From Candidatus Phycocordibacter aenigmaticus (lineage in GTDB: Bacteria > Patescibacteriota > Minisyncoccia > Phycocordibacterales > Phycocordibacteraceae): a DNA stretch of 64,000 bases. The notes under the pieces are model-generated. The model was not told the origin of the DNA. It worked only from the letters and a program-made list of their open reading frames with translations, and ran no database searches. The DNA lies in assembly GCA_045401115.1 (NCBI GenBank), contig CP174359.1:355247-419246 (forward strand), in the 5' to 3' direction. A program made the position numbers and the translations under genes. Within the stretch, counting starts at the first letter, position 1. Each line of letters opens with the position of its first letter. This document shows positions 26,464 through 50,083 of this stretch, one piece after another.

Positions 26464-26550
26464 CGGAGGAGTGGCTGAGTGGTCGAAGGCGCTCGCTTGG
26501 AAAGCGAGTGTGGGTTTACACCCACCGCAGGTTCGAATCCTGTCTCCTCC
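26464..26550 (+). tRNA. tRNA-Ser (anticodon GGA), class II with long variable arm
   Basis: GGAGGAG acceptor stem, anticodon loop TTGGAAA, T-arm GCAGG-TTCGAAT-CCTGT; CCA not encoded. Confidence 0.85.
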
Positions 26551-26736
26551 GCAGATGTCTAAGAAAATGCGAAAGCGTTTGATTAGAAAAAGCTGCGCAA
26601 GGAGAGAGAATTCGAACGGGAAGGGGGTCGGGGAAACGGGAGTTTCCCCGTGGCGGAATGAGGCGAAGCCGGACATAAAACCGAGGGGTTTTATGAGCGC
26701 AGCGAAGCGAGCAGTGAGATTCCTGTCTCCTCCGCA
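26551..26736 (+). mobile_element. tRNA-flanking structured element A, ending in a direct repeat of the tRNA-Ser 3' end (att-like)
   Basis: 18/19-nt copy of the tRNA 3' end at 26716-26736; GNRA hairpin 26563-26578; hairpins 26629-26650 and 26674-26695. Confidence 0.5.
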
Positions 26737-26963
26737 CTAAACAAAAGGATTGGCTTTGTGCTAGTGCTTTTGTTTTATATAAGGAGCGGCAGGATGAGAA
26801 GCAAGATGCTGGGAGCGTAAATTTTCTTGAGTGAGACGAGGTGGACAACTCTTGCTTGTGAACTCCTTTCTGACGGTGTATTTTAAAGACGGCTTGAACG
26901 GATTTCTAACCTTGTGCTACTCCTCGTGGATCGGTGTTGGTGGAGCAATAAAGCCGCTTTATT

Positions 26964-27584
26964 ATGAAAAAACGTTCAAAAAATCTCCGACACTATTTCT
27001 TAAAGGACATTAATCCTGTTATTCGTTTCTTGATAATCTCTGATACAGCGCTTGTTGGAGCAGCTGGATTACTTGCACCAATTTTTGCGCTTTTCGTCGA
27101 AGATTTCATTGTCGGCGGAAATGCTGCGGTAGCTGGTATAGCCGCGGGTGTGTATCTTTTTTCGAGAAGTATACTCCAAATCCCTATTGCACATCTTATG
27201 GATAAAATTTGCGGAGAAAGGGATGATTTTTGGTTCCTATTCTCTTTTTCAATCCTCTTTAGTGTTGTGCCACTTTTTTATCTTGTGATTCAAACTCCGC
27301 TTCAGCTGTATGGTGTCCAGTTTATTCTTGGTTTATTCACTGCGTTTACCTACCCTGCATTTATGGCAATTTTTACGCGCCATATTGACAAAGGAAGAGA
27401 AGGTACGGAGTGGGGTGTTTATTTCACTCTTACAGATGTTACAAGTGCTGCGCTCGCGGTTATCGGTGGTTATGTAGCGATATCGGCAGGATTTCCTGTT
27501 CTCATAACTATAGTCGTATCAATGTCTCTCCTTGGCGCTCTACTCTTACTCCCAATCCGACCATATATCAAACTAAAAGACTGA
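26964..27584 (+). CDS. 6-TM MFS-like membrane protein (half-size; possible truncated transporter)
   Basis: Resembles the C-terminal 6-TM half of MFS permeases; only 206 aa. Confidence 0.4.
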   Translation: MKKRSKNLRHYFLKDINPVIRFLIISDTALVGAAGLLAPIFALFVEDFIVGGNAAVAGIAAGVYLFSRSILQIPIAHLMDKICGERDDFWFLFSFSILFSVVPLFYLVIQTPLQLYGVQFILGLFTAFTYPAFMAIFTRHIDKGREGTEWGVYFTLTDVTSAALAVIGGYVAISAGFPVLITIVVSMSLLGALLLLPIRPYIKLKD

Positions 27585-27724
27585 TTACATTTTTGAATAA
27601 AAGTGCGAATATCATTCATATTGCACTGGATATTAGTTGCGTTTATTTTAAAACACGGTATTGTGTGGGCAGCTCGCTAGTTCCTCCATTATTTAGTTGG
27701 GAAAGAGATAGAGCAAGAAAGTTC

Positions 27725-28012
27725 ATGGGTAAGAAATTATTTGTCGGCAATGTGCCGTACCAGATTACTGAAGACGAACTTCGTCAGGCTTTTTCAGAAG
27801 CCGGAAACGTTGAATCAGTAGCAATTATCACCGATAAAATGACCGGTCGTCCTCGTGGCTTCGTGTTTGTTGAAATGTCAACAGACGAAGAAGCACAGAA
27901 AGCGATCGAGCTTTTGGACGGTAAAGATATGGGTGGGCGCACATTGAACGTCAACATTGCTAAGCCTCGTGAGGATAAACCTCAAGGTGATGGCTACAAC
28001 AGAGGATACTAA
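27725..28012 (+). CDS. RRM-type RNA-binding protein
   Basis: KLFVGNVPY (RNP2) and RGFVFVEM (RNP1) motifs. Confidence 0.85.
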   Translation: MGKKLFVGNVPYQITEDELRQAFSEAGNVESVAIITDKMTGRPRGFVFVEMSTDEEAQKAIELLDGKDMGGRTLNVNIAKPREDKPQGDGYNRGY

Positions 28013-28029
28013 CTTGTAATTCTCTTCAA

Positions 28030-28056
28030 AAAACCCCCGCCAAGCGGGGGTTTTTT
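28030..28056 (+). terminator. Rho-independent terminator
   Basis: AAAACCCCCGC-CAAG-CGGGGGTTTTTTG. Confidence 0.7.
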
Positions 28057-28082
28057 GTTTCCTCATGATATCGTGGTATAAT
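28055..28082 (+). promoter_or_regulatory. Sigma70-like promoter for RNase P RNA
   Basis: TTGTTT-16 nt-TATAAT. Confidence 0.4.
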
Positions 28083-28089
28083 AATTTTT

Positions 28090-28540
28090 AGCTATCTAAG
28101 AAATTAGGTAGCTTTTAAGCACCAGGTAATGGCGCCTGCGCTTGTAAAAAAGCCGGGTGAGGAAAGTCCGAACATGTATTTCAGTGTACGCTGATCTAAA
28201 AAGGTAGCGGGTAACTCCCGCACACTCCTCAAGTGAATAGGCTTCATATTATGTGAGGTATAGGAGTGAGCGTTGCGAGCAGAGACGCCGGCGGAGAAAT
28301 CCAAAGGCTCCAGCCCTCGTTTTATATTTATATAAAACGAGGGCTGGATGACACTCCTAGCAATAGGAGATTGAAACGGCTAAATACGTACTTACATGCA
28401 AGGCCGTGTCTAGTATGGGAAACCATATTTGGAAGTGCCGCATGAGGTGTTTGGCAACAAACATCCTAGATAAATCATTATCACACTATGCCAAGCATAG
28501 TGATACAGAATTCGGCTTATCGGTGCGAACTATTCACAGT
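28090..28540 (+). ncRNA. rnpB: RNase P RNA (bacterial type) with variant P4 helix
   Basis: GAGGAAAGTCCGAAC (5' P4 strand) and ACAGAATTCGGCTTATCGG (3' P4 strand) with compensatory CCGAA/TTCGG; GGTAAC motif; ORF-free 550-nt gap. Confidence 0.7.
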
Positions 28541-28622
28541 CACATGAAAACACCTCGTTTTGTAACGGGGTGTTTTCTTTTATAATGGTACAATAAAACA
28601 GTATTATCATATTTTATTTTTT

Positions 28623-30971
28623 ATGAATCATCATATTATGTCCACTGAGCAATCTGATACAGCCCAAGCGGCACCAAAACGAGATATTGCGTTTTATGCA
28701 ACACTTGGCATGATATTTGTTACTCCACTTTTCCTTATTCCATCAACTCTTGCACCGGTACAGTTTTCAAAAACTATGCTCGTGCTGCTCCTCCTTGCTG
28801 TCGCACTTACCGCACTTACATATCAGATATTTCGTAAAGGGGTATTTCACCATGTATGGTCTTGGCTCCACCTAACAGTATGGATACTTCCTGTAGCGTA
28901 TTTCATTTCAGCCCTATTCTCAGCACAACCTTCACGTTCTTTCTTGGGGTACAGCCTTGAAGTAGATACATTTGGGTTCATATTACTTGCCGCAGCATTA
29001 GTGCATCTTGCGTCTTTAACTCTTATCACTAAAGGAAGAATGATTGCAGCTTTTTTTGCTCTATTAGCAGCATCTTGGGTTGTCTTTGTTTTCCAATTAA
29101 TCCAAATTGCCTTTGGCGCTCCGTTTCCATTTTTCCCTAATCCAACCGCCAATATGGTGGGAAGCTGGAATGATCTAGGAATCTTTGCAGGACTTGTTGC
29201 TTCGCTGACACTTCTTGCAGTCGAATCGTTACCTTTCTCAAGATTGCACCACCTATTGCTGGTGGCAACTTTTGTTGTTGCGCTTTTCTTTATCATGCTT
29301 GTTGGGTTTACTCCGGCATGGATCGCGTTTGGTCTCGTAGCGTTTGTGGCGCTTGTACTCCGTGTTTCTCGCGGTATATTCACAGAGAATAAAGAGTCAA
29401 ATATTCGTTGGCCCGGAGTATTGCCTGTCGTTGGTTTTGTAGCAGCAGTATTTTTTGCCACTATTGGGGGTGGTGTAACTAGCACCATTCAAAATGCATT
29501 TGGCGTGGATAACTTCGATGTGCGTCCAACGACTCAATCAACCATCAATATATTAAATTCTGTATATGCGGAAGATCCTGTTTTTGGTTCTGGACCGAAT
29601 ACATTCAGTTCACAATGGCTTCTGTATCGCTCTGCTGAAGTAGCGCAATCACCATTTTGGAATTTATCATTCAATGCTGGTGCAAGCCGAGTACTTTCTA
29701 GTGCCGCTACAGGCGGGCTTGTGGTGGCACTTGCATGGCTTGCGTTCTTAGTGTTGCTTCTCTATACACTTGGTCGCGCATTTTTCTCTGGTATTACTGA
29801 TAAACGCTCGTATACCATTGTCTCGTTCTCGGCGCTCACTGTTCTATATTTACTGGTTATGCATGTGTTCTATGCACCAAGTCAATCATTATCGATTCTC
29901 TTGTTCTTGTTTATAGGTGTCTTTCTTGCTTCACTGCGTGGCACGTCGCTTACACAAAATACAACACTACAGTTGAAAAAATCACCAAGAATAGGGATTG
30001 CTTTTGTGTTTGGCGGCATCGTAATGACTCTCTTTGTATTTGGGTCAGTGTATGGAGTAGGGCAAAAGTATGTAAGTGCGTATTATCATAATCATGCCAT
30101 TGTTATTGCCAACCAAGGTGAACTAGCAGCTGGATTAGAAAAATTAGAGTCTGCAATCGGCCTCTCTGCACAAGACCGGTACTACCGTACCGCGGCATTA
30201 ATTCATTTAGCTCAACTGGAAAGAATTGTACAATCAGATGATTCAGGAGCGGAAGCGCAGAGTGCATTTCAAACAGCGCTTGCTGGTGCAGTACAAAATG
30301 CCGGACTTGCGCTACAACAAAATCCACGAAGTTTTGAAAACATCATGCTCCGTGGTCGGGTCTTTGAAAGCGCGGTGCCGCTTGAAATTGACGGCGCTTT
30401 AGAAAATGCGCTTAGTGTGTACGAAAATGCTCGCGTGCTTAACCCACTAAGTCCTGAAATTGATTGGCGCCTTGCAACACTACATGCTTCAGAAGGTGAT
30501 ATTGAAAAGGCTCGTGAACTTATTTCGACTGCACTTTCAAAGAAGGCTGATTATACACAAGCTATACTGCTTCTCGCTCAAATTGAACTCAATGCTGGTA
30601 ACCTAACCGAAGCAATTAACTCGGTACGTGCAGCGGTATATTTTGAGCCGCAAAACACTCTACTGCTTTACCAACTAGGTATCCTATTCTTACAAGACAA
30701 TGATTATGAAAATGCTGCAGCAGCGCTCGAAGAGTCATTGCGGCTTAATCCGGAATTTGCCAATGCTGCGTTTTTCCTCGCGCAGGCATATGCGTATCTT
30801 GATGAATTTGAAGCAGCTTCAGATATCATTGAACGTCTCATAACAGTGAATCCTGACAATGAATCACTTGAACCAATTCATGAGGCACTTACGAATAATG
30901 TGAATCCGTTTGCGCAAGCGCCAGTAGCTCCGAATGATGGAGAAGATGAAGAAGGGGTAGAAATTGAATAG
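28623..30971 (+). CDS. Polytopic membrane protein (Wzy/O-antigen-ligase-like topology) with C-terminal TPR repeat domain
   Basis: About 12 TM helices then ~300 aa TPR-like helical repeats. Confidence 0.45.
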   Translation: MNHHIMSTEQSDTAQAAPKRDIAFYATLGMIFVTPLFLIPSTLAPVQFSKTMLVLLLLAVALTALTYQIFRKGVFHHVWSWLHLTVWILPVAYFISALFSAQPSRSFLGYSLEVDTFGFILLAAALVHLASLTLITKGRMIAAFFALLAASWVVFVFQLIQIAFGAPFPFFPNPTANMVGSWNDLGIFAGLVASLTLLAVESLPFSRLHHLLLVATFVVALFFIMLVGFTPAWIAFGLVAFVALVLRVSRGIFTENKESNIRWPGVLPVVGFVAAVFFATIGGGVTSTIQNAFGVDNFDVRPTTQSTINILNSVYAEDPVFGSGPNTFSSQWLLYRSAEVAQSPFWNLSFNAGASRVLSSAATGGLVVALAWLAFLVLLLYTLGRAFFSGITDKRSYTIVSFSALTVLYLLVMHVFYAPSQSLSILLFLFIGVFLASLRGTSLTQNTTLQLKKSPRIGIAFVFGGIVMTLFVFGSVYGVGQKYVSAYYHNHAIVIANQGELAAGLEKLESAIGLSAQDRYYRTAALIHLAQLERIVQSDDSGAEAQSAFQTALAGAVQNAGLALQQNPRSFENIMLRGRVFESAVPLEIDGALENALSVYENARVLNPLSPEIDWRLATLHASEGDIEKARELISTALSKKADYTQAILLLAQIELNAGNLTEAINSVRAAVYFEPQNTLLLYQLGILFLQDNDYENAAAALEESLRLNPEFANAAFFLAQAYAYLDEFEAASDIIERLITVNPDNESLEPIHEALTNNVNPFAQAPVAPNDGEDEEGVEIE

Positions 30972-30980
30972 TAAGCGATT

Positions 30981-32654: not shown

Positions 32655-32656
32655 TT

Positions 32657-34456: not shown

Positions 34457-34700
34457 GGAACCGAGTATTTTAGAAGAAGTAAATGATTGGGGTGTAGAGG
34501 ATTATCATGCTTACAATGATAAGAAACACAAGCACGCCCCATACCCACTTCATAGCCCCTTTCGTTTTCTTGGAAAATAGCATATTGAGGACAGTATACC
34601 CATATCCGAAGCACCTGACTAGTGGAGGGTTATAGTACATATTAAATGAGATACATTACCTTCATAGGAGCTGTGTGTATCCGTAAGGTAGAATACAGGT

Positions 34701-35078
34701 ATGTTGAAAGGGCGAATTGAGCGACTTATTGTAAAAATATTACTGTGGGTGTTTATTGCCTTTCTTGTTGTCGTGACTGTTTTTTTGCTTGGCGCAACGT
34801 GGGAAGCGTATCAAAAAGAGCGGCTTGCGTGGCGTGAACACGCGAACGCTAAAGAGCGGTATGACGAAGTGTATAAACGTCATGAGACTCTTGTTAAAGA
34901 AATTGAGACGCTTTCTAATGAGCGAGGGCGTGAAGCAGAGTTCCGCACCCGTTTCCCCGTAGCTCGAGAAGGGGAGGAGGTCATTGTGCTTGTAGACGCG
35001 CCTGAGGTGCCTCAGGAGGGACAGGAAGATGAACGTCGGAGTATATGGAGTTCCGTTCGTGACTGGTTCGGATTTTAG
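34701..35078 (+). CDS. Septum-formation-initiator-like protein (FtsB/DivIC-like): TM plus coiled coil
   Basis: N-terminal TM, heptad coiled coil, C-terminal REGEEVIVLVD. Confidence 0.4.
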   Translation: MLKGRIERLIVKILLWVFIAFLVVVTVFLLGATWEAYQKERLAWREHANAKERYDEVYKRHETLVKEIETLSNERGREAEFRTRFPVAREGEEVIVLVDAPEVPQEGQEDERRSIWSSVRDWFGF

Positions 35079-35418: not shown

Positions 35419-35437
35419 GTATCATTTCGCTCCTTTT

Positions 35438-35514: not shown

Positions 35515-35832
35515 ATGCAACATATAGAACAACTACAAGCAATCGAACACGCACCGGCACGTTTGTGTAACTTAGGTATTTATGGGGAACTTAAGGTGCA
35601 TGATGTAGAAAAAGCGGTAGAAGCTGGTGAAATAAGCTTCCATGAAGGGGTTGAGTTAATTGAAAAATTTGGTGATCTTTCTAGAGTAGAGGCTTCACGC
35701 GTTCTTGAAGATGCTCTTGAGTCTCCGAATGATGCTATAGCTGAACTTCTTTCTGAAAGCGCACCACCTCTAAATGACGGCACTAATGTGTTTTACAGTG
35801 CCTGTGAAGCAATCTTCCAGTCTGGAATGTAG
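35515..35832 (+). CDS. Hypothetical acidic protein
   Basis: ORF with downstream terminator; no recognised domain. Confidence 0.4.
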   Translation: MQHIEQLQAIEHAPARLCNLGIYGELKVHDVEKAVEAGEISFHEGVELIEKFGDLSRVEASRVLEDALESPNDAIAELLSESAPPLNDGTNVFYSACEAIFQSGM

Positions 35833-35850
35833 TTGTCTATACTCTCTTCC

Positions 35851-35883
35851 AAACAACCCGCTTACATGGCGGGTTGTTTTTAT
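35851..35883 (+). terminator. Rho-independent terminator
   Basis: AAACAACCCGC-TTACATG-GCGGGTTGTTTTT. Confidence 0.7.
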
Positions 35884-35884
35884 T

Positions 35885-36151
35885 GATGTCCGCGCTAGAA
35901 CGCTTCGCTATCTCACTGCTCCCCAGCACCAGTTTGAGACAAAATGAAAATGGTTCGAAAATCTTTGTATGGAAATGAAACGTATCATACCTACTCACGT
36001 CCGTTCTCAAACTGGAGCTGGGTGTGCTCATAGAACCCTCGGTTCTATGTCGGCCAAAGGCCTAACTCCTCCACGGGAAAACAACGTGTTTTCCCGACCC
36101 TTTTCCAGTTCGATTCCTAGCAAGGGCACGGAATATGCTTCGCATTTTTAT
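35885..36151 (-). mobile_element. tRNA-Arg-flanking structured element E (related to element A), with an inverted copy of the tRNA 3' end
   Basis: 21-bp inverted repeat 36108-36129 / 36154-36175 involving the tRNA 3' end; hairpins 36029-36049 and 36074-36096 homologous to those of element A. Confidence 0.45.
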
Positions 36152-36227
36152 TGGTGCCCTTGCTAGGAATCGAACCTAGATCTAGAACTTAGGAGGTTCT
36201 TGTTCTATCCATTGAACTACAAGGGCA
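36152..36227 (-). tRNA. tRNA-Arg (anticodon CCT), CCA encoded
   Basis: Reverse complement gives TGCCCTT acceptor, anticodon loop CTCCTAA, GGTTCGATTCC T-arm, ...GGGCACCA. Confidence 0.85.
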
Positions 36228-36325
36228 TAGTGCTTCACGATAATGCGCGTCTTTTGCAAGCAAGAAGTGAATAGAAGTCTTGCTTATATTCACGCCGACG
36301 CGCCGCAAAAGTGGAAGCGCATTAT

Positions 36326-36598
36326 CTTACCACGCGCCCGCGTATGAAAAGACACGCAGTGCTTTCATACAAGAGCCAAAGGTTTGTGGTATTCCCACTG
36401 GCTCATGAAATACACGCAGTGATTTCATACAAGGGTGAGTAAAGGAGCTCGCTTACATTTTTGTTGAGGCGATGGAAAAAGTAAAGCGTGTTGCCTTACC
36501 ACGCGCCCGCGTATGAAAAGACACGCAGTGCTTTCATACAAGAGCCAAAGGTTTGTGGTATTCCCACTGGCTCATGAAATACACGCAGTGATTTCATA
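36326..36598. repeat. Two ~104-bp perfect direct repeats (36326-36429 and 36495-36598, period 169 bp), each holding two palindromes with a conserved ACACGCAGTG centre
   Basis: Direct comparison; TATGAAA...TTTCATA and CATGAAAT...ATTTCATA sub-palindromes. Confidence 0.8.
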
Positions 36599-36673
36599 TA
36601 AGGCATCGGACGTATCAAGCCGCACGGGGGTAAATACCCCCTAAACGGCTCTCTATGTTGTACACTGTTTTAT

Positions 36674-37012
36674 ATGAATCAGCAAAAGCAAAAAAAAGAA
36701 CCAGGACCTTCTTTAGATGAAGTATATAAGCTTGCTAAGGAAAATAATCGCATGCTCAAAGCCATGCGTCGGGATGCTTTCATTGGTGCTATCTTAAAAT
36801 TTGTGTTCTGGATTGCGATACTTTTTGTTATTCCTTATATTTTATATACGGTGTATCTGCAACCTCATTTAGTCAATCTTCAAAATACATATAATCAGTT
36901 TAATCAAAAAGTAGAAGCAATTGACGGCGCCTCACAAGAACTTCAGCAAGTGCGTGAAAGCCTCCCTGAAGGCTTTAACTCCTTTCTTGAGCAGTTTGGT
37001 ATTGGTGGCTAG
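36674..37012 (+). CDS. Hypothetical membrane protein
   Basis: Single TM, coiled-coil C-terminus. Confidence 0.4.
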   Translation: MNQQKQKKEPGPSLDEVYKLAKENNRMLKAMRRDAFIGAILKFVFWIAILFVIPYILYTVYLQPHLVNLQNTYNQFNQKVEAIDGASQELQQVRESLPEGFNSFLEQFGIGG

Positions 37013-37188
37013 AAAGATGGATTTTTGAGTGGGTTTTGATAGAATGGGGGACATTGCTAAGATTGAATGGTCTTGGTGATTGCCCTGCCGAGGGAAGATG
37101 TACTTCGTGTTATCTTGCCTCGGATGCAGTAAAGTTCCTCTCGAGGTAAAGCTTCTTACGGTCGCTTTGCCTCGGCGTCGAGCTGAGA

Positions 37189-37284
37189 GAATACGCTTCC
37201 TTTTTTCCGGCACGTCAACAAAAATGTAAGCGAGCTTCCATTTTTGTCTTGCTTGGAAAAATCGCGTATTCTCGTTAACCTCTT
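37189..37284 (+). promoter_or_regulatory. Conserved upstream stem-loop/promoter region of tRNA-Phe (homologous region lies upstream of tRNA-Arg)
   Basis: 10-bp inverted repeat GAGAATACGC...GCGTATTCTC; shared CTTGCTTG-AAAA-CGCG-ATT-TCGT block with 36229-36330 (tRNA-Arg). Confidence 0.45.
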
Positions 37285-37358
37285 GCCGAGGTAGCTCAGG
37301 TGGTTAGAGCACTGGTCTGAAGAACCAGGTGTCGGCGGTTCGAGTCCGCCCCTCGGCA
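37285..37358 (+). tRNA. tRNA-Phe (anticodon GAA)
   Basis: GCCGAGGTAGCTCAGGTGGTTAGAGC..., anticodon loop CTGAAGA, GGTTCGAGTCCGCC T-arm. Confidence 0.9.
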
Positions 37359-37561
37359 CAAAAACAATGAAGCCCGATACGAGAGTATCGGGCGATTTGT
37401 TTTGTAGCTACGAGGGCGGACTCGAAAGACGGAGCCGTGGGTCCCCATTGTGCTGAGTTTCAGGCACAATGGGGCGGCGAGTCCGGGCAGGAGGTTGTTA
37501 TGAGTTTTTCTATCGAGAGATAGGTAAAAACGAATTACGAACCTGACGCCGAGTCCGCCCC
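37359..37561 (+). mobile_element. tRNA-Phe-flanking structured element B, ending in a 12-nt repeat of the tRNA T-loop/T-stem (CGAGTCCGCCCC)
   Basis: GNRA hairpin 37373-37392; hairpin 37443-37476; shared 16-mer CGAGTCCGGGCAGGAG 37478-37493; junction GACGCCGAGTCC 37545-37556. Confidence 0.45.
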
Positions 37562-37589
37562 ATAACTTAGACTGGTTTATACTATACAT

Positions 37590-38096
37590 ATGGAGAAAAA
37601 AGTTTCCGTGAGTTTGGTAGACCAGCCAAACTATTCCTATACGCTTACTGAGCCGGTAGGGAAGAATTTTGACCCTGAATTTACGCCACACCTTACCCCC
37701 AAAGAGATGCTTGAGTTGGGCGTATTTTGTGGTCAATATATGCGCGACGGTGCCAAGGAATTTCCTGACTCATGGTTTACAAAAGCAAAGTTTACTAAAG
37801 GAGACAAAGCGGATTGCTCACTCAACTATTTTAAGGTGAATGCAAGCCAACCGCTTAGCGCATGGCAGGAAAAAGGATGGATACATCCAGACGATCCACG
37901 TGGGTGGTTTCAGTGGTACTGTCGGTATTACATGGGAAGGCGTCATGAGGATGATGAACGACAAATAAAGCGATGGAAGGCGTTTAGACGCCATGCAGCA
38001 CAAGTGCGAAACAACTGCGAGAGAGGAGATATGGGTTGTCGGTCCAAACAGCGCCAGGCCCTTCTGCACTGGGCATATGATAGTCGAAAATTATAA
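37590..38096 (+). CDS. Conserved hypothetical protein (Trp/Cys-rich; GWFQWYCRYYMGRR motif)
   Basis: 168-aa ORF with terminator; family not identified with confidence. Confidence 0.45.
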   Translation: MEKKVSVSLVDQPNYSYTLTEPVGKNFDPEFTPHLTPKEMLELGVFCGQYMRDGAKEFPDSWFTKAKFTKGDKADCSLNYFKVNASQPLSAWQEKGWIHPDDPRGWFQWYCRYYMGRRHEDDERQIKRWKAFRRHAAQVRNNCERGDMGCRSKQRQALLHWAYDSRKL

Positions 38097-41629: not shown

Positions 41630-41738
41630 CTATGGCATGTCCGTCCTTTAATGAGGGAAGCGACGAATAAAGTTCTATCACTGCCTAAGCTATTGCAATT
41701 ATAGCTATTATGTTGCATAATAAATATAGATAAAATAT

Positions 41739-42812: not shown

Positions 42813-42830
42813 GTGCGCGTAGCGCACTGT

Positions 42831-44003
42831 TTATTCAGCGAGTGATTGCGAACCTCGCGCGTTCAGTTCTTTTTCAGTATCTGCTTTGCCGGCGCTGTGG
42901 CGCAAGTATGCGGCGATACCTATCATAATTGCATTATCTCCGGTTAGTCCGCTTTCAGGATAATGAAGCGTTATGTTTGGATGGTGAGAAACCAGTTCCT
43001 CTAATCCTTCACGGATATGTGTATTTGCCGCTACGCCGCCTCCGACCACGAGTGTTTTGGGATGTTGTATTTCAATGGCGCGTTTTGTTTTGTGCACCAA
43101 CACATCACGCGCCGCGTCTTCAAATTCGCGAGCAATATTTTCTTTATCTTCTTGTGAAAGTTCTCCCATGTCACGCACTAAGTAGAGTACAGCCGTTTTC
43201 AGACCTGAAAACGATACATCGCAACTTTCTTCGTGTAACATCGGGCGGGGAAGTGTAATAGGGTTTTCACCACCGCGCTCGCGTGCTTTTGTAGCATATG
43301 CAGATATTTCCGGCCCACCAGGATACTCAAGACCTAAGAGGCGCGCCACTTTATCAAACGCTTCACCTACGGCGTCATCGCGCGTTTGACCCACTAAATT
43401 ATATGCAAACCACTCTTTCATGGTAATAAGTTCAGTGTGTCCACCGGAAATAAGTAGTGCCAGTAATGGCAGTGCAGTGTCAGTAATATGATAGGTGTTT
43501 GGGGTGCGGAGGTCTTTTTTGAGTAGAGCAGAGGTAATGTGTCCTTCCATATGGTCAATGCCGGTCAGGGGAATATCCCAGGCAGCGCTGAGTGCTTGCG
43601 CAAAGGTAACACCGGTCCACAGTGCGGGTTCCAACCCAGGTCCGTTGGTTACAGCAATAAGGTCAATATCAGGTTTCTCGGTCGTTTCAAGGAAATCATT
43701 CACCGCTTTTTTAAATGATTCGTCACGGAGTGGTTCAAGCACATCGTCCGTTATTGTGTTGCAAGAGTCTTGTTTAAGTAGGCCTGCCTGGCGCAATGTT
43801 TCTGTGGTTAGGGGCACCAAATTTTGTTGGTGTTCACGTTTCGCAAGGGAAGGGTACACGCCGCCATACTCAGAGTGCTTAGATGCCTGAGAGTACAAGG
43901 AATCACCCAGAAGGGTATATTGGGATGATTCAATATTACCTGTCGCCTCAAGTACGGTTATTGCGGTCTCGTCACAACTGGTTTCAATGGCTAAAATTTT
44001 CAT
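42831..44003 (-). CDS. tsaD: tRNA N6-adenosine threonylcarbamoyltransferase TsaD (Kae1/Qri7 family)
   Basis: MKILAIETSCDETAI N-terminus, HMEGH metal-binding motif. Confidence 0.9.
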   Translation of the reverse strand: MKILAIETSCDETAITVLEATGNIESSQYTLLGDSLYSQASKHSEYGGVYPSLAKREHQQNLVPLTTETLRQAGLLKQDSCNTITDDVLEPLRDESFKKAVNDFLETTEKPDIDLIAVTNGPGLEPALWTGVTFAQALSAAWDIPLTGIDHMEGHITSALLKKDLRTPNTYHITDTALPLLALLISGGHTELITMKEWFAYNLVGQTRDDAVGEAFDKVARLLGLEYPGGPEISAYATKARERGGENPITLPRPMLHEESCDVSFSGLKTAVLYLVRDMGELSQEDKENIAREFEDAARDVLVHKTKRAIEIQHPKTLVVGGGVAANTHIREGLEELVSHHPNITLHYPESGLTGDNAIMIGIAAYLRHSAGKADTEKELNARGSQSLAE

Positions 44004-44010
44004 ATACAGA

Positions 44011-44213
44011 TGTTGTGGGCGATACAGGACTCGGCGTCAGGTTCCTAAGCTCATTCATCGCTCCGCTCTTCATTCACTAAGGACCTCCTGCCCGGCCTCG
44101 CCGACAAGCACTCGCTCTCGCTCGTCTTGTATACCGGCTCCGGCTTTCTCGTCCTGTGTCGCTGCTACAAACCTAAGTTGCATCATGCATGCGCATACTG
44201 CTCTAAGGTTTTG
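44011..44213 (-). mobile_element. tRNA-Val-flanking structured element D, ending (44011-44030) in a 20/21-nt direct repeat of the tRNA 3' end
   Basis: TGTGGGCGATACAGGACTCG present at 44011-44030 and 44212-44231; GACGCCGAGTCC junction and CCGGGCAGGAG motif on the minus strand. Confidence 0.5.
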
Positions 44214-44287
44214 TGGGCGATACAGGACTCGAACCTGTGACCTCGTCAACGTCAATGACGCGCTCTAGCCAACTGAGCTAATCGCCC
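44214..44287 (-). tRNA. tRNA-Val (anticodon GAC)
   Basis: Reverse complement gives GGGCGATTAGCTCAGTTGGCTAGAGC, anticodon loop TTGACGT, GGTTCGAGTCCTGT T-arm. Confidence 0.9.
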
Positions 44288-44327
44288 TTATTATGGGTGG
44301 GTCCAGTGTAGCTATTTTTAAATCTAT

Positions 44328-44927
44328 ATGCAATTTGGCCCCACCACTATTGTGCTCTATCCCACCGATACGCTTTATGGGCTGGGTGTGGACGCTACGA
44401 GTCCTGAAGCAATAACACGCCTGCAGCATTTAAAAGGGAGAGATGATAAAAAACCCATCTCAATTGTCGTATCCGATATAGCAATGATGAATCAGTATGT
44501 TGAGGTAACTCCGCTTGCACGAAAACTTGCTGAAAAATTTTTACCCGGAAAAATTACGTTGGTGTTAAAAGCAAAGACGCGTCCAGAGAATAGAGATGAT
44601 ACACCACTTGCCTCTGGAGTGGTAAGTCAGGAGGGGACTGTGGGGATACGTATCCCGGATCGTCCAGAAGCGCTTGAACTAGTACGAGATTTGGGGCGGC
44701 CGCTCACCGCAACGAGCGCGAATGTATCAGGTAAAGCAACCGCGCGGACGCCGGAAAAGATTCTCCTCCAGTTTAACGAAAAAGCGTCCATGATCACTGA
44801 TGTAGTGAGTATCGGAAAACTTCCAATAAGTGAACCTTCCACTGTTATTGATGCGCGTGGAGAGAAACCAATAATTCTTCGTGAGGGCGCTATTCTTACC
44901 GCGACTATTAACGCAGCGGTTTTATAG
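44328..44927 (+). CDS. tsaC: L-threonylcarbamoyladenylate synthase TsaC/YrdC
   Basis: YPTDTLYGLG signature, SANVSG. Confidence 0.85.
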   Translation: MQFGPTTIVLYPTDTLYGLGVDATSPEAITRLQHLKGRDDKKPISIVVSDIAMMNQYVEVTPLARKLAEKFLPGKITLVLKAKTRPENRDDTPLASGVVSQEGTVGIRIPDRPEALELVRDLGRPLTATSANVSGKATARTPEKILLQFNEKASMITDVVSIGKLPISEPSTVIDARGEKPIILREGAILTATINAAVL

Positions 44928-45067
44928 AGAAAAATCAAGAATTGTGGATAAGGGTTGCAATTTTTAAATATATGGTGTAATTTAAGACCTGTTGCAGCCT
45001 TTAATCCAAGGCGCAGCCGATGTATAAAAATACGCGTGGGGGGATACCCCCATAAAAAGAAATCGCA

Positions 45068-45090
45068 AGCCCGTGAGGGCTTTTTTATGT
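45068..45090 (+). terminator. Hairpin plus T-run upstream of the ABC exporter (possible tsaC terminator)
   Basis: AAGCCC-GTGA-GGGCTTTTTT. Confidence 0.45.
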
Positions 45091-45114
45091 GTCGGAAAAA
45101 AGAACAATAGATAT

Positions 45115-46893
45115 ATGGATAAAAAAACAGAACATATCCCACAGCACCCACTATTATTTGTGTGGTTTGCGACAAAACCACATAAGTGGTGGTTTTTCGG
45201 TGCCTTGCTTGCCGTCACTATTGCTAATGGTATTGGTTCAAGTATCCCGTATGTATTTGGGCGTATTGTTGATGTGGCGACACAAACCTCAAGTATGGAA
45301 ACACTTAACCTCACTGGTGTGTGGTACTGGGGCGTCATGTATATAGGCGCATTGGCTGTTATGTATGTTGCATACCGCACAAGTGGTTTTTTAGGTATGC
45401 AGTTTATAACGAGAATGCAGGCTACGGGGTATCACTCACTTTTTGCATACCTCACTAAACATAGCCATACATTCTTTTCAAATCGTTTTGCAGGAGCGTT
45501 AACCAATAAAGTGGCTAACGCTGCTTTTGGTGCAGGTAACTTTGCAGAATCATTTCTTTGGAACTACTACACTACCGTCATTACGTTCCTGGTAACCGGG
45601 GCACTTATTTTCTCAGCAAGTGTTACCGTCGGATTCGTGTTCCTCGCGCTTCTTGTAGTGCTTTTTAGTATGAACTACGTGTTAGTACAGCGTCGTCGTC
45701 CGTTAGTGGTCGCGCACGCAAAAGAAAATTCAGTGCTTCGTGGTATCGCGGTTGATATTGCAAGTAATATTAACGCAGTGCAACAATTTGCACGGCGGAA
45801 ACACGAGTTGGATTTCCTCGGAGTACAAGTTACCAAAGAGCGACTAGCTGATGTAAAGCAGTGGCGGATGAGTGAGTGGGTGTTGACGCTCAACAACGTC
45901 TTAATTGTTATTGCCGCTGCCGTCATGTTGTTTGTATTGGTACGACTTCTTGCTGCGCAAAGTATTACACTCGGGCAGTTTGTGATGGTTCTTACCTTAA
46001 TGTTTGAAGTAGTTGGTGTCCTTACTTTTATAGGGAGTCTTATGAACGGCTTTATTCGGCGTTATGGTGAAATTGAGGAAGGACTCGATGAGGTGCTCAA
46101 ACCACATGGCATCACCAATTATCCCAAAGCCGGGGATCTTGCAGTAGGCGATGGTGTGCTTTCGTTTAACGATGTCGGTTTTTCCTACGGCACACACGAT
46201 GTCTTTAAAAACTTGAATCTTACGATTAAAAGTGGAGAACGCGTTGGTGTGGTAGGTGCCTCTGGTGCTGGTAAAACAACATTGGTTTCGCTTGTACTAC
46301 GCCAGCATGACGTACATGAAGGAATGGTGGAAATTGATGGTCAGAATATTCGCAAAGTGACTCTCGACTCGCTCCGCTCTGCTATTGCCGTGGTGCCACA
46401 AGAACCAGCTCTCTTCCATAGGACTCTTAAAGAGAATATTGCCTACGGCAATCCAAACGCGACCGACGAGGAGATCGTTGAAGCCGCAAAACAGGCACAG
46501 GCGCATGCGTTTATTCAAGAACTTCCTGAAGGATATGACACTTTAGTGGGTGAGCGTGGTATTAAACTTTCTGGTGGACAACGGCAACGTATCGCTATTG
46601 CGCGTGCACTGCTTAAGAATGCGCCATTTTTGGTACTTGATGAGGCAACAAGCGCGCTTGATAGCGAAAGCGAAGTTGAGATTCAAAAAGCATTCCACAC
46701 ACTCATGGAGGGGAAGACAGTGATTGCTATTGCGCATCGCCTCTCAACACTGCGCGAGATGGACCGCATTATTGTGTTTGAAGAAGGGAAGATTGTCCAA
46801 GACGGCACCCATGAGGAACTTCTCAAAGAAGAGGGAGGAGTCTATGCACGTTTATGGAATCATCAAGCAGGTGGTTTCCTCCAGGACGATTGA
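45115..46893 (+). CDS. ABC exporter, fused permease/ATPase (MsbA/lipid-exporter-like)
   Basis: 6-TM domain then Walker A GASGAGKTT, LSGGQRQRIAIARAL, Walker B LVLDEATSALD. Confidence 0.85.
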   Translation: MDKKTEHIPQHPLLFVWFATKPHKWWFFGALLAVTIANGIGSSIPYVFGRIVDVATQTSSMETLNLTGVWYWGVMYIGALAVMYVAYRTSGFLGMQFITRMQATGYHSLFAYLTKHSHTFFSNRFAGALTNKVANAAFGAGNFAESFLWNYYTTVITFLVTGALIFSASVTVGFVFLALLVVLFSMNYVLVQRRRPLVVAHAKENSVLRGIAVDIASNINAVQQFARRKHELDFLGVQVTKERLADVKQWRMSEWVLTLNNVLIVIAAAVMLFVLVRLLAAQSITLGQFVMVLTLMFEVVGVLTFIGSLMNGFIRRYGEIEEGLDEVLKPHGITNYPKAGDLAVGDGVLSFNDVGFSYGTHDVFKNLNLTIKSGERVGVVGASGAGKTTLVSLVLRQHDVHEGMVEIDGQNIRKVTLDSLRSAIAVVPQEPALFHRTLKENIAYGNPNATDEEIVEAAKQAQAHAFIQELPEGYDTLVGERGIKLSGGQRQRIAIARALLKNAPFLVLDEATSALDSESEVEIQKAFHTLMEGKTVIAIAHRLSTLREMDRIIVFEEGKIVQDGTHEELLKEEGGVYARLWNHQAGGFLQDD

Positions 46894-46969
46894 ACCCTTC
46901 TCGTTTAATTCATTTAAAAACACTACGATTATCCGTAGTGTTTTTAAATGAGTGGCGCTCCGCTCTTAA

Positions 46970-47779
46970 TTACTCTAATATATTTTCTTTTTTAATATAT
47001 AAACGTTCTATATATTCTTTATCTAAATATGTACGTAATGCCATTTTCCACCAGTCGTATACTTCATTGCCGGTATTTTTGTACAAAGTTTCAGCAGTGT
47101 GCAGCTTGCCGCCTCTCACTAATTCAGTGGCAGGAGGTAACATATACTTTTCAAGGAAAGGTGCTGTCTCGGAAACGAGTACCTGTAAGAGAGGATAGTG
47201 AGTATGTCTTTTATTGAAGTGCTTTATATAGTAATCATGCGGTATATCAATTTTCCCTAATACAGCATCAGATACATTAATAGTGAAAGCAGAGTTGCCA
47301 GCATAGAGTTCGTGTAAAGATTCGCATAATGCATCAAAACGGTCGAAAAATTTCACAACCTGACTTTCCAGTGTGTTTTTATGCATCACTTCCATAAGGA
47401 GAGAGCGATAGTTGTAGTTATGTATTTCTTGTGGAAATTGTGAGGCTAGTTCATTAATTGCATCTACCTCGTCTAAATCTACCTGTTGCAGCACCGCACG
47501 TCCCATTTTTGCTTTGTGTCCAGCTTGCACATCTCCTGTAATAATCTCAGCATCATCATGCACTAAAGCCATGGTAATAGCCTTTGTGGTATCGAAACTT
47601 TTATCAAAAAACTGTTCAATCAATGGCGCGGCTTTAGTTATCAAACATGCAACTTTAAGAGAGTGAAAATAAACCGTCGGACGGTAAAACATTGGGGAAT
47701 AAATATGAAATCGGCCAATCTGCTCTAGTGCTGCCTTCCTTCCTTGGAATGCGTCTAATTCTGTAATAGTAGAATTCAT
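46970..47779 (-). CDS. HD-domain phosphohydrolase (YfbR-like 5'-nucleotidase family)
   Basis: H...HDDAE...D metal-binding motifs. Confidence 0.65.
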   Translation of the reverse strand: MNSTITELDAFQGRKAALEQIGRFHIYSPMFYRPTVYFHSLKVACLITKAAPLIEQFFDKSFDTTKAITMALVHDDAEIITGDVQAGHKAKMGRAVLQQVDLDEVDAINELASQFPQEIHNYNYRSLLMEVMHKNTLESQVVKFFDRFDALCESLHELYAGNSAFTINVSDAVLGKIDIPHDYYIKHFNKRHTHYPLLQVLVSETAPFLEKYMLPPATELVRGGKLHTAETLYKNTGNEVYDWWKMALRTYLDKEYIERLYIKKENILE

Positions 47780-47930
47780 GTGACGGTTTCAGTATAGCAG
47801 CTTACCAATTATGAATGATTTGTATCTGATATTAAAAAATCCTATTGTCAGTGCAGTAGATCTTTATGTGTTTTCAAGGTGGGCATAACTAATTGCTTTT
47901 CATTTCTCAGCATCTAGAATAGGAATAGAT

Positions 47931-48917
47931 ATGTTTGGCCTAGAAATGACTATTATCTGGATGATTCTAGGTTTTCTCTTCGCTGCCTATTCTGTTATTG
48001 GCAATGACAGCATTCAGACGTTGGGGACATTCATTGCCTCCAACCAAAAAACCAAATGGTATTACCTCTGGGCCTTCTCGGCCCTTATTTTAATTGTGAC
48101 GCTTTCCATAAGTTTCTTCGCCAATAATGGTGACATTGCGTCGGGTAGGCTTGCAAAAATTCCATTCGTTGAGATTCAGTGGTATCACGCTCTGGCACCG
48201 CTCGGGTTAGTTCTTTTGACACGTTTCGGTATTCCGGCTTCAACCTCGCTCTTGGTATTGAGCGCCTTCGCTTCTTCGATGGTCTTCAGTAGCATCTTGC
48301 TGAAGTCGGCGTTAGGGTATGCTATTGCCGCAGTAGTCGCGTATGTGCTCTGGATTATTATCTACCGTTGGGATAATAAAAAGAATCCCATCGCAAAGAA
48401 TAAAGAAAAATTGTGGCGAGTCTTTCAGTGGATGGCGACAGGATTCCTTTGGTATACCTGGCTTTCGCACGACATTGCCAACATCGCTGTATTCTTGCCG
48501 CGCGAATTGAATCTCTGGCAGTTCGGCGCTGTGTTGGCGGTGTTTGTGGTTGGTCTTGCCTACATTATGTATAACCGTGGTGGCAAGATACAGAACATTG
48601 TTCTTGAGAAGAGTAATACCAACTACCTGCGCAGTGCCACACTCATTGATCTTACGTTCGGTATTATCCTGCTTGTGTTCAAAGAGATGAACAATATACC
48701 CATGTCTACGACCTGGGTATTTATTGGTCTCCTCAGTGGTCGGGAGCTGGCGATGTATTCGCGCATCGTGGAATATAAACTCAAGCATGTATTCCCGATC
48801 GTGGGGAAAGACTTACTCCGACTCTTATTCGGTTTAGCCATTTCCATTCTTATTGCTTTTGCTATACAGCATGCAACCGCTATTGGTGCGTTTGTAAATC
48901 TTGTTTTTGCCGGGTAG
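47931..48917 (+). CDS. PiT-family inorganic phosphate/anion permease (putative)
   Basis: GNDSIQTLGT and GIPASTS / PMSTTWVF repeats matching PiT GANDVAN and GxPxSTTH motifs. Confidence 0.55.
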   Translation: MFGLEMTIIWMILGFLFAAYSVIGNDSIQTLGTFIASNQKTKWYYLWAFSALILIVTLSISFFANNGDIASGRLAKIPFVEIQWYHALAPLGLVLLTRFGIPASTSLLVLSAFASSMVFSSILLKSALGYAIAAVVAYVLWIIIYRWDNKKNPIAKNKEKLWRVFQWMATGFLWYTWLSHDIANIAVFLPRELNLWQFGAVLAVFVVGLAYIMYNRGGKIQNIVLEKSNTNYLRSATLIDLTFGIILLVFKEMNNIPMSTTWVFIGLLSGRELAMYSRIVEYKLKHVFPIVGKDLLRLLFGLAISILIAFAIQHATAIGAFVNLVFAG

Positions 48918-49014
48918 TAACACTCCCGTCGAGGAAATTTCTGGATATGGTCCACTGAACCAACTTTCTGAACTTTATACAGACCGTAGCGGTGTTGCTA
49001 TGAGTATCCAAAGG

Positions 49015-49578
49015 TTAGAGATTTTTCAATCGATTAAAGATGTTAAGAAATAGTTCGTCTCCGAAACTAGTATCAGTGTGATTTTCAGGATGGAATTGAA
49101 GTGCATAGATTGGTCGCGTTTTGTGTCGTATTACTTCTGGTCCATGATCGGACTCGGCAAGCACCTCAAACTCAGCTGGTAGCTCGCCTGTACCCCAACG
49201 ATGGTTTTCAAATGCTTGGAATGTTGGTGTTCTGTAAAATAACTCGAGATCTTTTAAAACATGTATTTGAACAGTTCCAATTTCGTGTTCATCAAGTTTT
49301 TTTAGAACCCCTCCTAAAGCATGAATAATAAGTTCATAACCAAAACAGATACCAATGATAGGTTTTGTAGTGTTTTGTATAAATTCAATTTCGGCTTTGT
49401 ATTTCTCCTCGTTACCGTAGAGTGGTCCCAAACTACTTCCTGAAAGCACAACTACATCAGCATCTTCCGTATTTTTTTCAGAAAATGCATCAAAGCAAAG
49501 TACCGATTCTTCACCAGGGATAAGTTGCTTTAACTTTTCTTGAAGTGTCGTGCCGTTATCTACTAGAAGGACATTCAT
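49015..49578 (-). CDS. Class I glutamine amidotransferase (stand-alone GATase1)
   Basis: GICFGYEL nucleophile elbow, LQFHPE motif. Confidence 0.75.
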   Translation of the reverse strand: MNVLLVDNGTTLQEKLKQLIPGEESVLCFDAFSEKNTEDADVVVLSGSSLGPLYGNEEKYKAEIEFIQNTTKPIIGICFGYELIIHALGGVLKKLDEHEIGTVQIHVLKDLELFYRTPTFQAFENHRWGTGELPAEFEVLAESDHGPEVIRHKTRPIYALQFHPENHTDTSFGDELFLNIFNRLKNL

Positions 49579-49654
49579 TTTTCTATTTTCTCATGGTTCG
49601 GAAACCTTTCTTTCTCTAAAATTGAAAAAGGCCGGCTAAACCATGAAAAATTTG

Positions 49655-49726
49655 TGACCCCACGGGGAATCGAACCCCGATTTTAAGCTTGAAAAGCTCA
49701 CGTCCTAACCGTTAGACGATGGGGCC
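49655..49726 (-). tRNA. tRNA-Glu (anticodon TTC)
   Basis: Reverse complement gives GGCCCCATCGTCTAACGGTTAGGACG, anticodon loop TTTTCAA, GGTTCGATTCCCCG T-arm. Confidence 0.85.
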
Positions 49727-49803
49727 AAAAGTGACCAAAAGGACCTTTAAAATATAGCATTTTGAGCAGAAAATGCTAGGATTTCCTGAGTGAGTTTCTC
49801 ATT

Positions 49804-49887
49804 GGAGGAGTGCCCGGAATTGGTAACGGACCGCTCTCGAAAAGCGGCGCGGGAAACCGCTTGTGGGTTCGAGTCCCATCTCCTCCG
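49804..49887 (+). tRNA. tRNA-Ser (anticodon CGA), class II
   Basis: GGAGGAG acceptor, 3-bp D stem, anticodon loop CTCGAAA, variable arm, GTGGG-TTCGAGT-CCCAT T-arm. Confidence 0.8.
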
Positions 49888-50083
49888 CAAATGTCTAAGA
49901 AGACGCGAGAGCGTCTGATTAGCAACAATTGCGAGAAGGAGATGAGGCGAGAAAGACGGAGGCCGCGAAGCCGTGACGATAGTACACGTGGCCGAGTCCG
50001 GGCAGGAGCCACTTAGTATTTTGTGAGCAAAGCGAGACAAAATAGTTAGTGAGTTGACGCCGAGTCCCATCTCCTCCGCAAAT
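49888..50083 (+). mobile_element. tRNA-Ser(CGA)-flanking structured element C, ending in a 23-nt direct repeat of the tRNA 3' end
   Basis: CGAGTCCCATCTCCTCCGCAAAT at 49871-49893 and 50061-50083; GNRA hairpin 49901-49916; 16-mer CGAGTCCGGGCAGGAG 49993-50008. Confidence 0.5.

Follow-up and report, generated by a model that had tools for sequence, protein, structure and literature searches.

ORF-less structured elements at tRNA and protein-gene ends in Candidatus Phycocordibacter aenigmaticus and other Patescibacteria: possible mini-insertions that replace gene ends

The stretch analysed, called the window throughout, comprises 64,000 nt of the genome of Candidatus Phycocordibacter aenigmaticus (contig CP174359.1, positions 355,247 to 419,246 of the forward strand). 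Six tRNA genes were called in it by ARAGORN and Rfam, and five of them are followed by a structured segment of 180-350 nt without open reading frames (ORFs); tRNA-Glu (49654-49726) is the sole tRNA gene of the window without such a downstream element. The five elements are designated A (at tRNA-Ser(GGA)), E (tRNA-Arg(CCT)), B (tRNA-Phe), C (tRNA-Val(GAC)) and D (tRNA-Ser(CGA)). Read on the tRNA-sense strand, each begins with the tRNA, which is followed by a leader hairpin; then come the tRNA 3' end copied in inverted orientation (X'), a core, and the tRNA 3' end copied in direct orientation. The cores fall into two types, type 1 in elements A and E and type 2 in elements B, C and D. Together the five modules occupy about 1.2 kb inside 24 kb of the window; the genomes of Patescibacteria measure about 0.7 Mb and are under strong reduction. 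The parts of the elements are as follows.

26465..26552, + strand: tRNA-Ser(GGA), host gene of element A (ARAGORN, Rfam)
26555..26586, + strand: leader hairpin of element A, with a GNRA loop; the element D counterpart has compensatory changes (sequence reading)
26593..26617, + strand: X' of element A, matching at 21/25 positions
26618..26710, + strand: type-1 core of element A
26629-26650, + strand: core hairpin 1 of element A, GGAAGGGGGTCGGGG
26662-26670, + strand: second core hairpin of element A
26674-26695, + strand: core hairpin 3 of element A, ACC-GAG-GGT, followed by the tail ending GTGAGAT
26711..26736, + strand: direct copy of element A, exact over 26721-26736, with the altered T-loop GTGAGAT 5' of the copy
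36152..36226, - strand: tRNA-Arg(CCT), host gene of element E (ARAGORN, Rfam)
36108..36135, - strand: X' of element E, 26/28, perfect over 22 nt (36108-36129)
36029..36107, - strand: type-1 core of element E
36074-36096, 36052-36062 and 36029-36049, - strand: core hairpin 1, second hairpin and hairpin 3 of element E
35921..36022, - strand: extra long hairpin of element E (~100 nt, near-perfect), between hairpin 3 and the tail
35881..35920, - strand: tail of element E, AGCAGTGAGAT-AGCGAAGCGT, with a degenerate direct copy (14/18, 35881-35898)
37285..37359, + strand: tRNA-Phe, host gene of element B (ARAGORN, Rfam)
37360..37404, + strand: leader of element B, a terminator-like hairpin with its stem at 37372-37393
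37401..37426, + strand: X' of element B, 23/26, exact over 13 nt at 37414-37426
37427..37549, + strand: type-2 core of element B, with GAAAGACGGAGCC and the junction GACGC
37443-37474, 37478-37493 and 37492-37544, + strand: hairpin, tRNA-3'-end-like 16-mer and hairpin within the core of element B
37550..37561, + strand: direct copy of the tRNA-Phe 3' end in element B, 12 nt from C56
44213..44287, - strand: tRNA-Val(GAC), host gene of element C (ARAGORN, Rfam)
44169..44212, - strand: leader hairpin of element C
44146..44171, - strand: X' of element C, 20/26
44034..44145, - strand: type-2 core of element C, with GAAAGCCGGAGCC and the junction GACGC
44100-44135, 44085-44100 and 44039-44086, - strand: hairpin, 16-mer and hairpin within the core of element C
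44013..44033, - strand: direct copy of the tRNA-Val 3' end in element C, 21 nt from C56
49804..49888, + strand: tRNA-Ser(CGA), host gene of element D (ARAGORN, Rfam)
49891..49922, + strand: leader hairpin of element D, a paralogue of the element A leader
49929..49953, + strand: X' of element D, 19/25
49954..50060, + strand: type-2 core of element D, with GAAAGACGGAGGC and the junction GACGC
49961-49993, 49993-50008 and 50009-50053, + strand: hairpin, 16-mer and hairpin within the core of element D
50061..50083, + strand: direct copy of the tRNA-Ser(CGA) 3' end in element D, 23 nt from C56

The long hairpin of element E is absent from the other type-1 units and may be a nested insertion. The direct copy of element C stops 9 nt short of the ATG of tsaD (44003).

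Direct copies were sought by comparing the last ~35 nt of each tRNA with the 325 nt downstream and recording the longest exact match, with 300 shuffles of each downstream region serving as the control. The longest exact copies measured 16 nt at tRNA-Ser(GGA) (23/27 with gaps over 26711-26736), 12 nt at tRNA-Phe, 21 nt at tRNA-Val and 23 nt at tRNA-Ser(CGA), against a mean of about 6 nt and maxima of 9-11 nt in the shuffled regions; the copy at tRNA-Phe is marginal if judged alone. Downstream of tRNA-Glu the longest match was only 6 nt. An earlier sequence-only reading, which described ORF-free segments ending in direct copies of the tRNA 3' end at these four genes, is thus borne out, except that it placed the repeat of tRNA-Val at 44011-44030 instead of 44013-44033. 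It also had every copy begin at T-loop position C56, which applies to the three type-2 elements only; in the type-1 element at tRNA-Ser(GGA) the exact repeat starts at T60/C61, after the altered T-loop GTGAGAT.

The perfect 22-nt inverted copy that the same reading saw at tRNA-Arg is present (36108-36129), but it is no peculiarity of this gene: X' lies directly 5' of the shared core in all five window elements, and the tRNA-Arg element possesses a degenerate direct copy as well. The motifs said to be common to elements B, C and D were recovered, with three copies of the type-2 16-mer CGAGKCCGGGCAGGAG in the window and none in 100 shuffles, and three copies of GAAAGNCGGAG. Likewise, the core common to elements A and E was confirmed. 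The shared leader had been attributed to the wrong pair, elements 'A and C': the 32-mer ATGTCTAAGAA..GATTAG has two copies in the window, both in the tRNA-Ser elements (26555-26586 and 49891-49922, the first and fourth sites).

The type-1 core is composed of GGAARG-GGGTCGGGRAAAC-loop-GTTTYCCCGT, GGNGGA, an ..ACC-loop-GGT.. hairpin, optional hairpins and a tail ending GTGAGAT, and the type-2 core of GAAAGNCGGAG, a hairpin, GGCGAGKCCGGGCAGGAG, a second hairpin and TGACGC. In the minimum-free-energy folds of the five window elements X' and the direct copy form a stem that closes the core, and the fold z-scores were -9.2, -2.8, -6.4, -4.0 and -5.2. The one variable pair that the search pattern allows in type-1 hairpin 1 covaries (A:T 64, G:C 52, G:T 4, A:C 1; Fisher p = 3e-28). 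Hairpin 3 was recovered in 94 units with 74 distinct sequences, and its pairs beyond the invariant ACC:GGT were Watson-Crick in 493 cases, G:U in 24 and A:C in nine. Moreover, 45 of 47 units gave a better core fold on the tRNA-sense strand than on the antisense strand. Because of this hairpin covariation and the bias of the folds towards the sense strand, the core is a conserved single-stranded structure on the tRNA-sense strand.

Matches to known RNA families (tRNA-like RNAs, YrlA, ribozymes, group I introns and T-box among them) were looked for, as the sequence-only reading had proposed. In gathering mode, only the six tRNAs passed the gathering score over the whole window; in E-value mode, Rfam 15 returned nothing credible for positions 35800-37650 (elements E and B), the YrlA match reaching 18 bits against a gathering score of 69. 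Hammerhead, hepatitis delta virus, K-turn, C/D-box and RNase P-like readings of the core were tried by eye; none fits, and none has Rfam support. A small protein encoded by the shared leader (MSKKMRKRL.. / MSKKTRERL..) was also rejected: there is no ribosome-binding site, the similarity is lost about 12 codons in, at the point of divergence of the core types, and the sequence forms a hairpin in which the changes are compensatory. Two mechanically called ORFs, at 26471-26740 (89 aa) and 49810-50016 (68 aa), each pass through a tRNA-Ser gene and its element. Spurious ORFs over the G-rich core, with products ending ..GRGSGK.. or ..ERGRGN.., are probably called in many annotations of metagenome-assembled genomes (MAGs).

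The 16-mer inside the type-2 core (37478-37493, 44085-44100 and 49993-50008) equals the T-loop-to-acceptor 3' end of real tRNAs on phage contigs, namely L027, L035, L040 and L093 (sequences other than the window are given L numbers). Judging from this identity, it may be the fossil end of an earlier host tRNA that is carried inside the element.

The family extends well beyond what is seen in the window. The further copies for which the sequence-only reading had advised a search were found in one scan of a genome collection, in which the type-1 hairpin pattern occurred at no fewer than 118 loci. The units are ORF-less, measure about 90-350 nt and are distributed Patescibacteria-wide: among the matches listed, 80 titles comprised 71 Patescibacteria or candidate phyla radiation (CPR) entries, seven unclassified 'bacterium' MAGs and two with other labels. 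One of these last two, a 'Chloroflexi' match (L163), was discarded, since the rest of the core is missing and it looks like a chance hairpin. The order of parts is invariant, running from the intact end of a gene that is essential and strongly conserved through a short spacer, X' and the conserved core to the direct copy of the gene end, with X' repeating, in inverted orientation, the first 10-22 nt of the gene segment that is duplicated and always abutting the core. Across more than 100 species-level genomes the core is strongly conserved in both sequence and structure.

Among the 121 listed type-1 matches, 57 sit 30-230 nt downstream of a tRNA on the same strand, with at least 28 anticodons represented. 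The remaining listed matches show the same architecture at the same protein-gene ends, which recur in different genomes. The targets at 3' ends, with the core on the strand of the gene, were rpsI (S9), found six times, and rplL (L7/L12). At 5' ends, where the core lies on the opposite strand, the targets were fusA (elongation factor G) three times, typA three times, lepA, rpmB (L28) and, twice, a glycosyltransferase gene. Orientation with respect to the gene end is therefore constant, while orientation with respect to transcription is not. In the window itself, typA (start 9651) and lepA (start 32657) carry no element; the listed ORF start of typA, 9606, lies upstream of the likely real start at about 9651.

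Type 2 was also found at tRNA-Phe in L002, L244 and L248 and at tRNA-Asn in L150. In the last of these, positions 288-760 hold tRNA-Asn, a type-1 unit and a type-2 unit in tandem, and a near-identical segmental copy lies 7 kb away (7256-7790), preceded by a sequence in which ARAGORN calls no tRNA. Among bystander tRNAs, meaning those in the loci fetched for the type-1 core, 14 of 78 have a copy of their 3' end of at least 11 nt downstream without the exact type-1 pattern, compared with 0 of 78 in shuffles; further element variants therefore exist. Both core types were absent from 2.9 million viral contigs in four scans: the only matches of the type-2 16-mer and a two-part pattern were in coding DNA rich in GC or at the 3' ends of genuine phage tRNAs, and the type-1 patterns gave one chance match and then none. 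The literature, searched also with the exact motif strings, yielded no description of these elements; the nearest paper reports group I introns at position 35/36 of Patescibacteria tRNAs (PMC13011429).

The comparison of the upstream (left) and downstream (right) gene ends bears on which of them is native. X' complements the left, intact end better than the right copy in 72 of 85 loci. At 41 type-1 tRNA sites the left-right identity was 32-78% over positions 53-59, 85-100% over positions 60-74 and 41-56% beyond 74, which is a sharp junction. The T-loop of the right copy at these sites is recurrently GTGA[GA]A[TC], a sequence whose pairing with X' would be preserved by tandem G.A pairs.

At protein-gene ends the left and right copies differ by 87 synonymous and 40 non-synonymous codons. 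The ratios of synonymous to non-synonymous differences at 5'-end sites were 8:1, 9:1, 11:2, 7:1 and 8:2, and the single amino-acid change there always adjoins the core (AH[VI]D to AP[VI] or AQVD). The typA, fusA and lepA sites have the core-adjacent motif GAYRAYGGGTGC in common. Synonymous sites are near saturation without a matching excess of non-synonymous changes, which disfavours a decaying local duplicate. As the divergence is mostly synonymous, the left and right copies therefore represent two functional alleles that were joined recently.

At tRNA-Gly(CCC) of L249 the displaced right copy is, on our reading, identical at 35/35 positions to the tRNA of L246, a relative that has no element, while the working 3' half on the left shows about 10 differences, compensatory changes in the T-stem among them. 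This working half also has an unusual T53-A61 pair in the T-stem. In both L249 (915-1070) and L248 (2440-2684, - strand) the 3' part of tRNA-Gly(CCC) is duplicated around inserts of about 36-85 nt that contain neither core type. From these alignments we infer that the left copy, spacer, X' and core were imported and that the right copy is native save for a short core-adjacent mimic. That the downstream copy looks like a displaced end comes from the relatives, the window's own copies being too alike to tell.

Empty sites, which the sequence-only reading had also suggested looking for, exist. At the orthologous tRNA-Arg / ORF112 / tRNA-Phe locus the type-2 element of tRNA-Phe is present in four of eight lineages (the window, L002, L244 and L248) and absent from the other four (L245, L246, L247 and L249); the tRNA-Arg element occurs in two of the eight, the window and, in a short form, L002. 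At tRNA-Ser(CGA) the window has a type-2 element and L004 a type-1 element, and compared with the relatives, only the window has an element at tRNA-Val. This patchy presence and the swapping of types fit gain and loss, i.e., mobility.

ORF112 (36674-37012) encodes a predicted membrane protein of 112 aa without a Pfam family. Many Patescibacteria retain it between tRNA-Arg(CCT) and tRNA-Phe, with 17 homologues of 46-61% identity, and a metagenome scan with the ORF112 alignment returned one locus only, L244. Between the 5' end of tRNA-Arg and the ORF at 36674, two direct repeats of 156 nt (36279-36603; 87% identical, spaced by 169 nt) each hold hairpins of the form TATGAAAnnACACGCAGTGnTTTCATA; the spacer in L002 is only about 25 nt. 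At 42831-44927, tRNA-Val and element C, next to sua5, occupy the position upstream of tsaD at which the relatives L001 and L004 have a HAD-hydrolase gene, so this locus has been rearranged.

The explanation that we favour, with confidence about evenly balanced, is that the elements are small ORF-less insertions which enter conserved gene ends and carry a substitute end with them. Integration would take one crossover of the Campbell type, located in the gene-end segment that both partners share, the incoming small molecule consisting of a gene end, spacer, X' and core. The element would then supply the working upstream copy together with the spacer, X' and core, and the downstream copy would be the displaced native end, apart from its core-proximal few nucleotides, which would be an element-borne, imperfect mimic of the gene end (GTGAGAT where type 1 adjoins a tRNA, GACGC replacing T54-T55 where the core is of type 2, and GGGTGC where the target is a GTPase gene). 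A crossover of this kind would reproduce the observed order of parts exactly and would explain why the mimic is free to diverge. More speculatively, the free form might be a small, probably single-stranded circle or fragment, in which X' would pair with the gene-end segment so that the hairpin stem equals the duplex of the chromosomal target and the core lies in the loop. The reaction would be carried out by a trans-acting or host recombination function, and spread between lineages may be helped by extreme target conservation and by natural competence, which is documented as conserved in Patescibacteria (PMC10633639).

Two other origins were rejected. A simple target-site duplication does not account for the gene's own spacer, start codon or terminator lying between the left copy and X' (L210), nor for the mostly synonymous divergence. 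An origin from a retroelement or tRNA-primed cDNA was set aside as the leading idea because the repeats include genomic trailer nucleotides and not CCA; Patescibacteria are reported to lack group II introns and the reverse transcriptases that go with them (PMC13011429).

Several results weigh against replacement of gene ends by mini-insertions. Neither a recombinase or nuclease nor a free or circular form was identified, and the fetched loci contained nothing convincing in the way of an autonomous ORF-carrying copy or a partner repeat kilobases away. The model leaves retargeting unexplained, since X' and the carried gene end must both change. The persistence of the tRNA-Phe element across deep lineages could equally be compatible with a host function, and the lineages that have it share a neighbouring protein that is only about 51-56% identical. 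At tRNA-Val, L001, a 90%-identical relative, is not syntenic and hence gave no pair of filled and empty alleles, and near-identical strains yielded none either. Right copies at S9 sites have many non-synonymous changes. Identity between left and right copies extends over 52-75 nt in some cases, which under this model needs later gene conversion or a closely related donor. Finally, the covariation and fold data, including the G:U excess and the asymmetry of the folds, fit RNA and single-stranded DNA alike.

A broader proposal is put forward tentatively: that the elements form a protein-less mobile class whose attachment site is a folded hairpin made from the target's own sequence, programmed by homology and retargetable. 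Such a class may colonise the most conserved ends of translation genes by end replacement throughout the Patescibacteria, and its core may be the handle for a trans-acting or host recombination activity, possibly guided by RNA or single-stranded DNA.

The strongest competitor, somewhat doubtful in our view, is a cis-acting or processed non-coding RNA that is read through from the promoter of the tRNA or gene. X' would pair with the upstream RNA end, or the stem of X' and copy would mimic an acceptor/T minihelix, and the module would punctuate, stabilise or regulate transcripts of the translation apparatus, the duplications being a by-product of how modules originate. The conserved sense-strand structure with its covariation, G:U excess and some GNRA loops is what such an RNA would show, as is the recurrent GTGA[GA]A, which would give tandem G.A pairs with X'. 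No sigma-70-like promoter was found on the sense strand inside the elements and only element B has a terminator-like leader, both in keeping with read-through, and same-strand ORFs begin 28, 9 and 16 nt downstream of elements B, C and D. The choice of targets (tRNAs, ribosomal proteins and translation GTPases) and the retention of the tRNA-Phe element in deep lineages point in the same direction. However, the constant orientation to the transcript that a cis-regulatory RNA or riboswitch should have was not found: at fusA, typA, lepA and rpmB the sense strand of the core is opposite to the gene. The synonymous divergence and the case of L249 and L246 show import of DNA and not selection on RNA alone, the elements are scattered patchily over the relatives, and the same tRNA has different core types in different genomes. 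Of the non-coding RNA with an acceptor/T-arm mimic that the sequence-only reading had entertained, the sense-strand structure stands, but the mimicry fails at protein-gene sites, where the stem is unlike a tRNA.

RNA-guided recombination is unlikely. Here the core would be a scaffold, X' and the sense segments would be programmable guides, and the recombinase would be encoded elsewhere, in the manner of the bridge or seek RNAs of the insertion sequences IS110/IS1111 or of omega-RNAs. The layout is suggestive, with a target-complementary arm directly 5' of a scaffold that is structured on the sense strand, a target-sense segment 3' of it, and one scaffold serving many targets. Nevertheless, no ORF of DEDD, TnpB or IscB type lies in or beside any element, no Rfam family matches, and the arms of 10-22 nt and copies of up to 75 nt are far longer than known guide loops; nor does IS110 insertion yield a foreign allele imported along with a duplicated gene end.

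It is similarly improbable that the duplications are by-products of homology-facilitated illegitimate recombination during natural transformation, with the cores as passive, hitch-hiking cargo. Competence is documented (PMC10633639), and the core-less duplications at tRNA-Gly in L249 and L248, together with the end copies downstream of bystander tRNAs, are of the form that this process would leave. Passive cargo, however, agrees poorly with a core so strongly conserved in sequence and structure, with X' always placed directly against it, with sharp and type-specific junctions, and with the recurrence of the same element-borne mimic motifs at paralogous targets.

Remnants or trans-mobilised miniatures of tyrosine-integrase islands or prophages, with the repeats as attL/attR and the core as a residue of attP arms, are very improbable, for despite direct repeats that start at a fixed T-loop position, a gene completed by the upstream copy and one large serine recombinase gene near two elements of L204, a single core is found at at least 28 anticodons and at 5' and 3' ends of protein genes, no integrase or autonomous copy was seen in the window ORFs scanned or the fetched loci, viral contigs lack both core types, and an inverted target copy and covarying hairpins are foreign to attP arms. 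The decayed ordinary integrase islands of the sequence-only reading are accordingly not sustained. Its att-like logic survives insofar as the upstream copy completes the tRNA and repeats flank the insert, but attL/attR leave the inverted arm unexplained. It was right that no integrase is present: none, and no transposase or reverse transcriptase, was detected by Pfam among about 58 of the 60 largest window ORFs. The L204 gene is a serine-recombinase-like ORF of 440 aa (..HPDRLARN..) about 180 nt from the element at 3137; it lies on a Niyogibacteria contig near two type-1 elements, possibly by coincidence.

If the elements are mobile, they would illustrate a way into essential genes without harm, by end replacement and without an element-encoded enzyme. 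Their compact, apparently retargetable principle of recognition might then be of interest for genome engineering, and they could be used to trace horizontal exchange between lineages that have not been cultured. If they are instead functional RNAs, they would regulate tRNAs, ribosomal proteins and translation GTPases, or signal their processing, across the whole phylum. In either case, the annotation of tRNA flanks and small ORFs is distorted in thousands of MAGs, and a family is missing from Rfam.

Among known systems, the tRNA-targeting elements of tyrosine integrases, reportedly classified by Williams in 2002, resemble the present ones in inserting in the 3' part of a tRNA from the T-loop and in supplying a replacement 3' end, the displaced native end becoming a downstream direct repeat. 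The flanking repeats and the upstream copy completing the tRNA are found here; an adjacent integrase gene and a restriction to few attB sites are not. Unlike those elements, the present ones have no integrase or cargo, measure only 90-350 nt, use one core for dozens of tRNAs and for protein-gene ends, and contain an additional inverted target copy and covarying core hairpins.

The folded single-stranded attP sites of CTX phage and of integrative mobile elements exploiting Xer (IMEX), as well as integron attC sites, are hairpin attachment sites. The likeness lies in inverted segments about 70-150 nt apart that are predicted to be able to fold into a stem resembling the target duplex, so that integration would need no element-encoded enzyme, and such target-mimicking stems were obtained in silico. 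The targets differ, being tRNA and protein-gene ends and not dif, at which XerC/D act, or attI, and the stem is different for each target, set by homology and not by a recombinase-binding consensus.

MITEs (transposable elements of the miniature inverted-repeat kind) and cis-mobilisable elements (CIMEs) are likewise small, ORF-less, multi-copy and presumably mobilised in trans. In contrast to MITEs, the inverted arms here are derived from the target and differ at every site, there are no shared terminal inverted repeats, and the duplications vary between 12 and 75 nt in place of a target-site duplication of fixed length.

The bridge and seek RNAs of IS110/IS1111 also place a structured non-coding module between matches to both target strands and show many specificities. 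Target-matching arms are present here, while no donor loop is identifiable; moreover, there is no recombinase ORF or Rfam match, the matching segments are much longer, and the insertion product is different. The t-elements of plant mitochondria recall elements B, C and D in placing a tRNA-end-like helix between a tRNA and a downstream mRNA, a likeness that fails at protein-gene sites and for elements on the opposite strand.

Homing introns and inteins, like free-standing homing endonuclease genes, settle in those sites of essential genes that are conserved most strongly, and the tRNA T-arm, the GTPase G1 motif and the termini of ribosomal proteins are sites that they share with the present elements; in both cases, flanking gene sequence of the donor lineage arrives with the element. 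The difference is that neither splicing nor an endonuclease is involved here, and the gene stays functional through duplication and replacement of its end. With respect to the group I introns of Patescibacteria tRNAs (PMC13011429), the tRNAs here are complete upstream of the element and are not interrupted at position 35/36. We class the elements as miniature integrative or homing elements.

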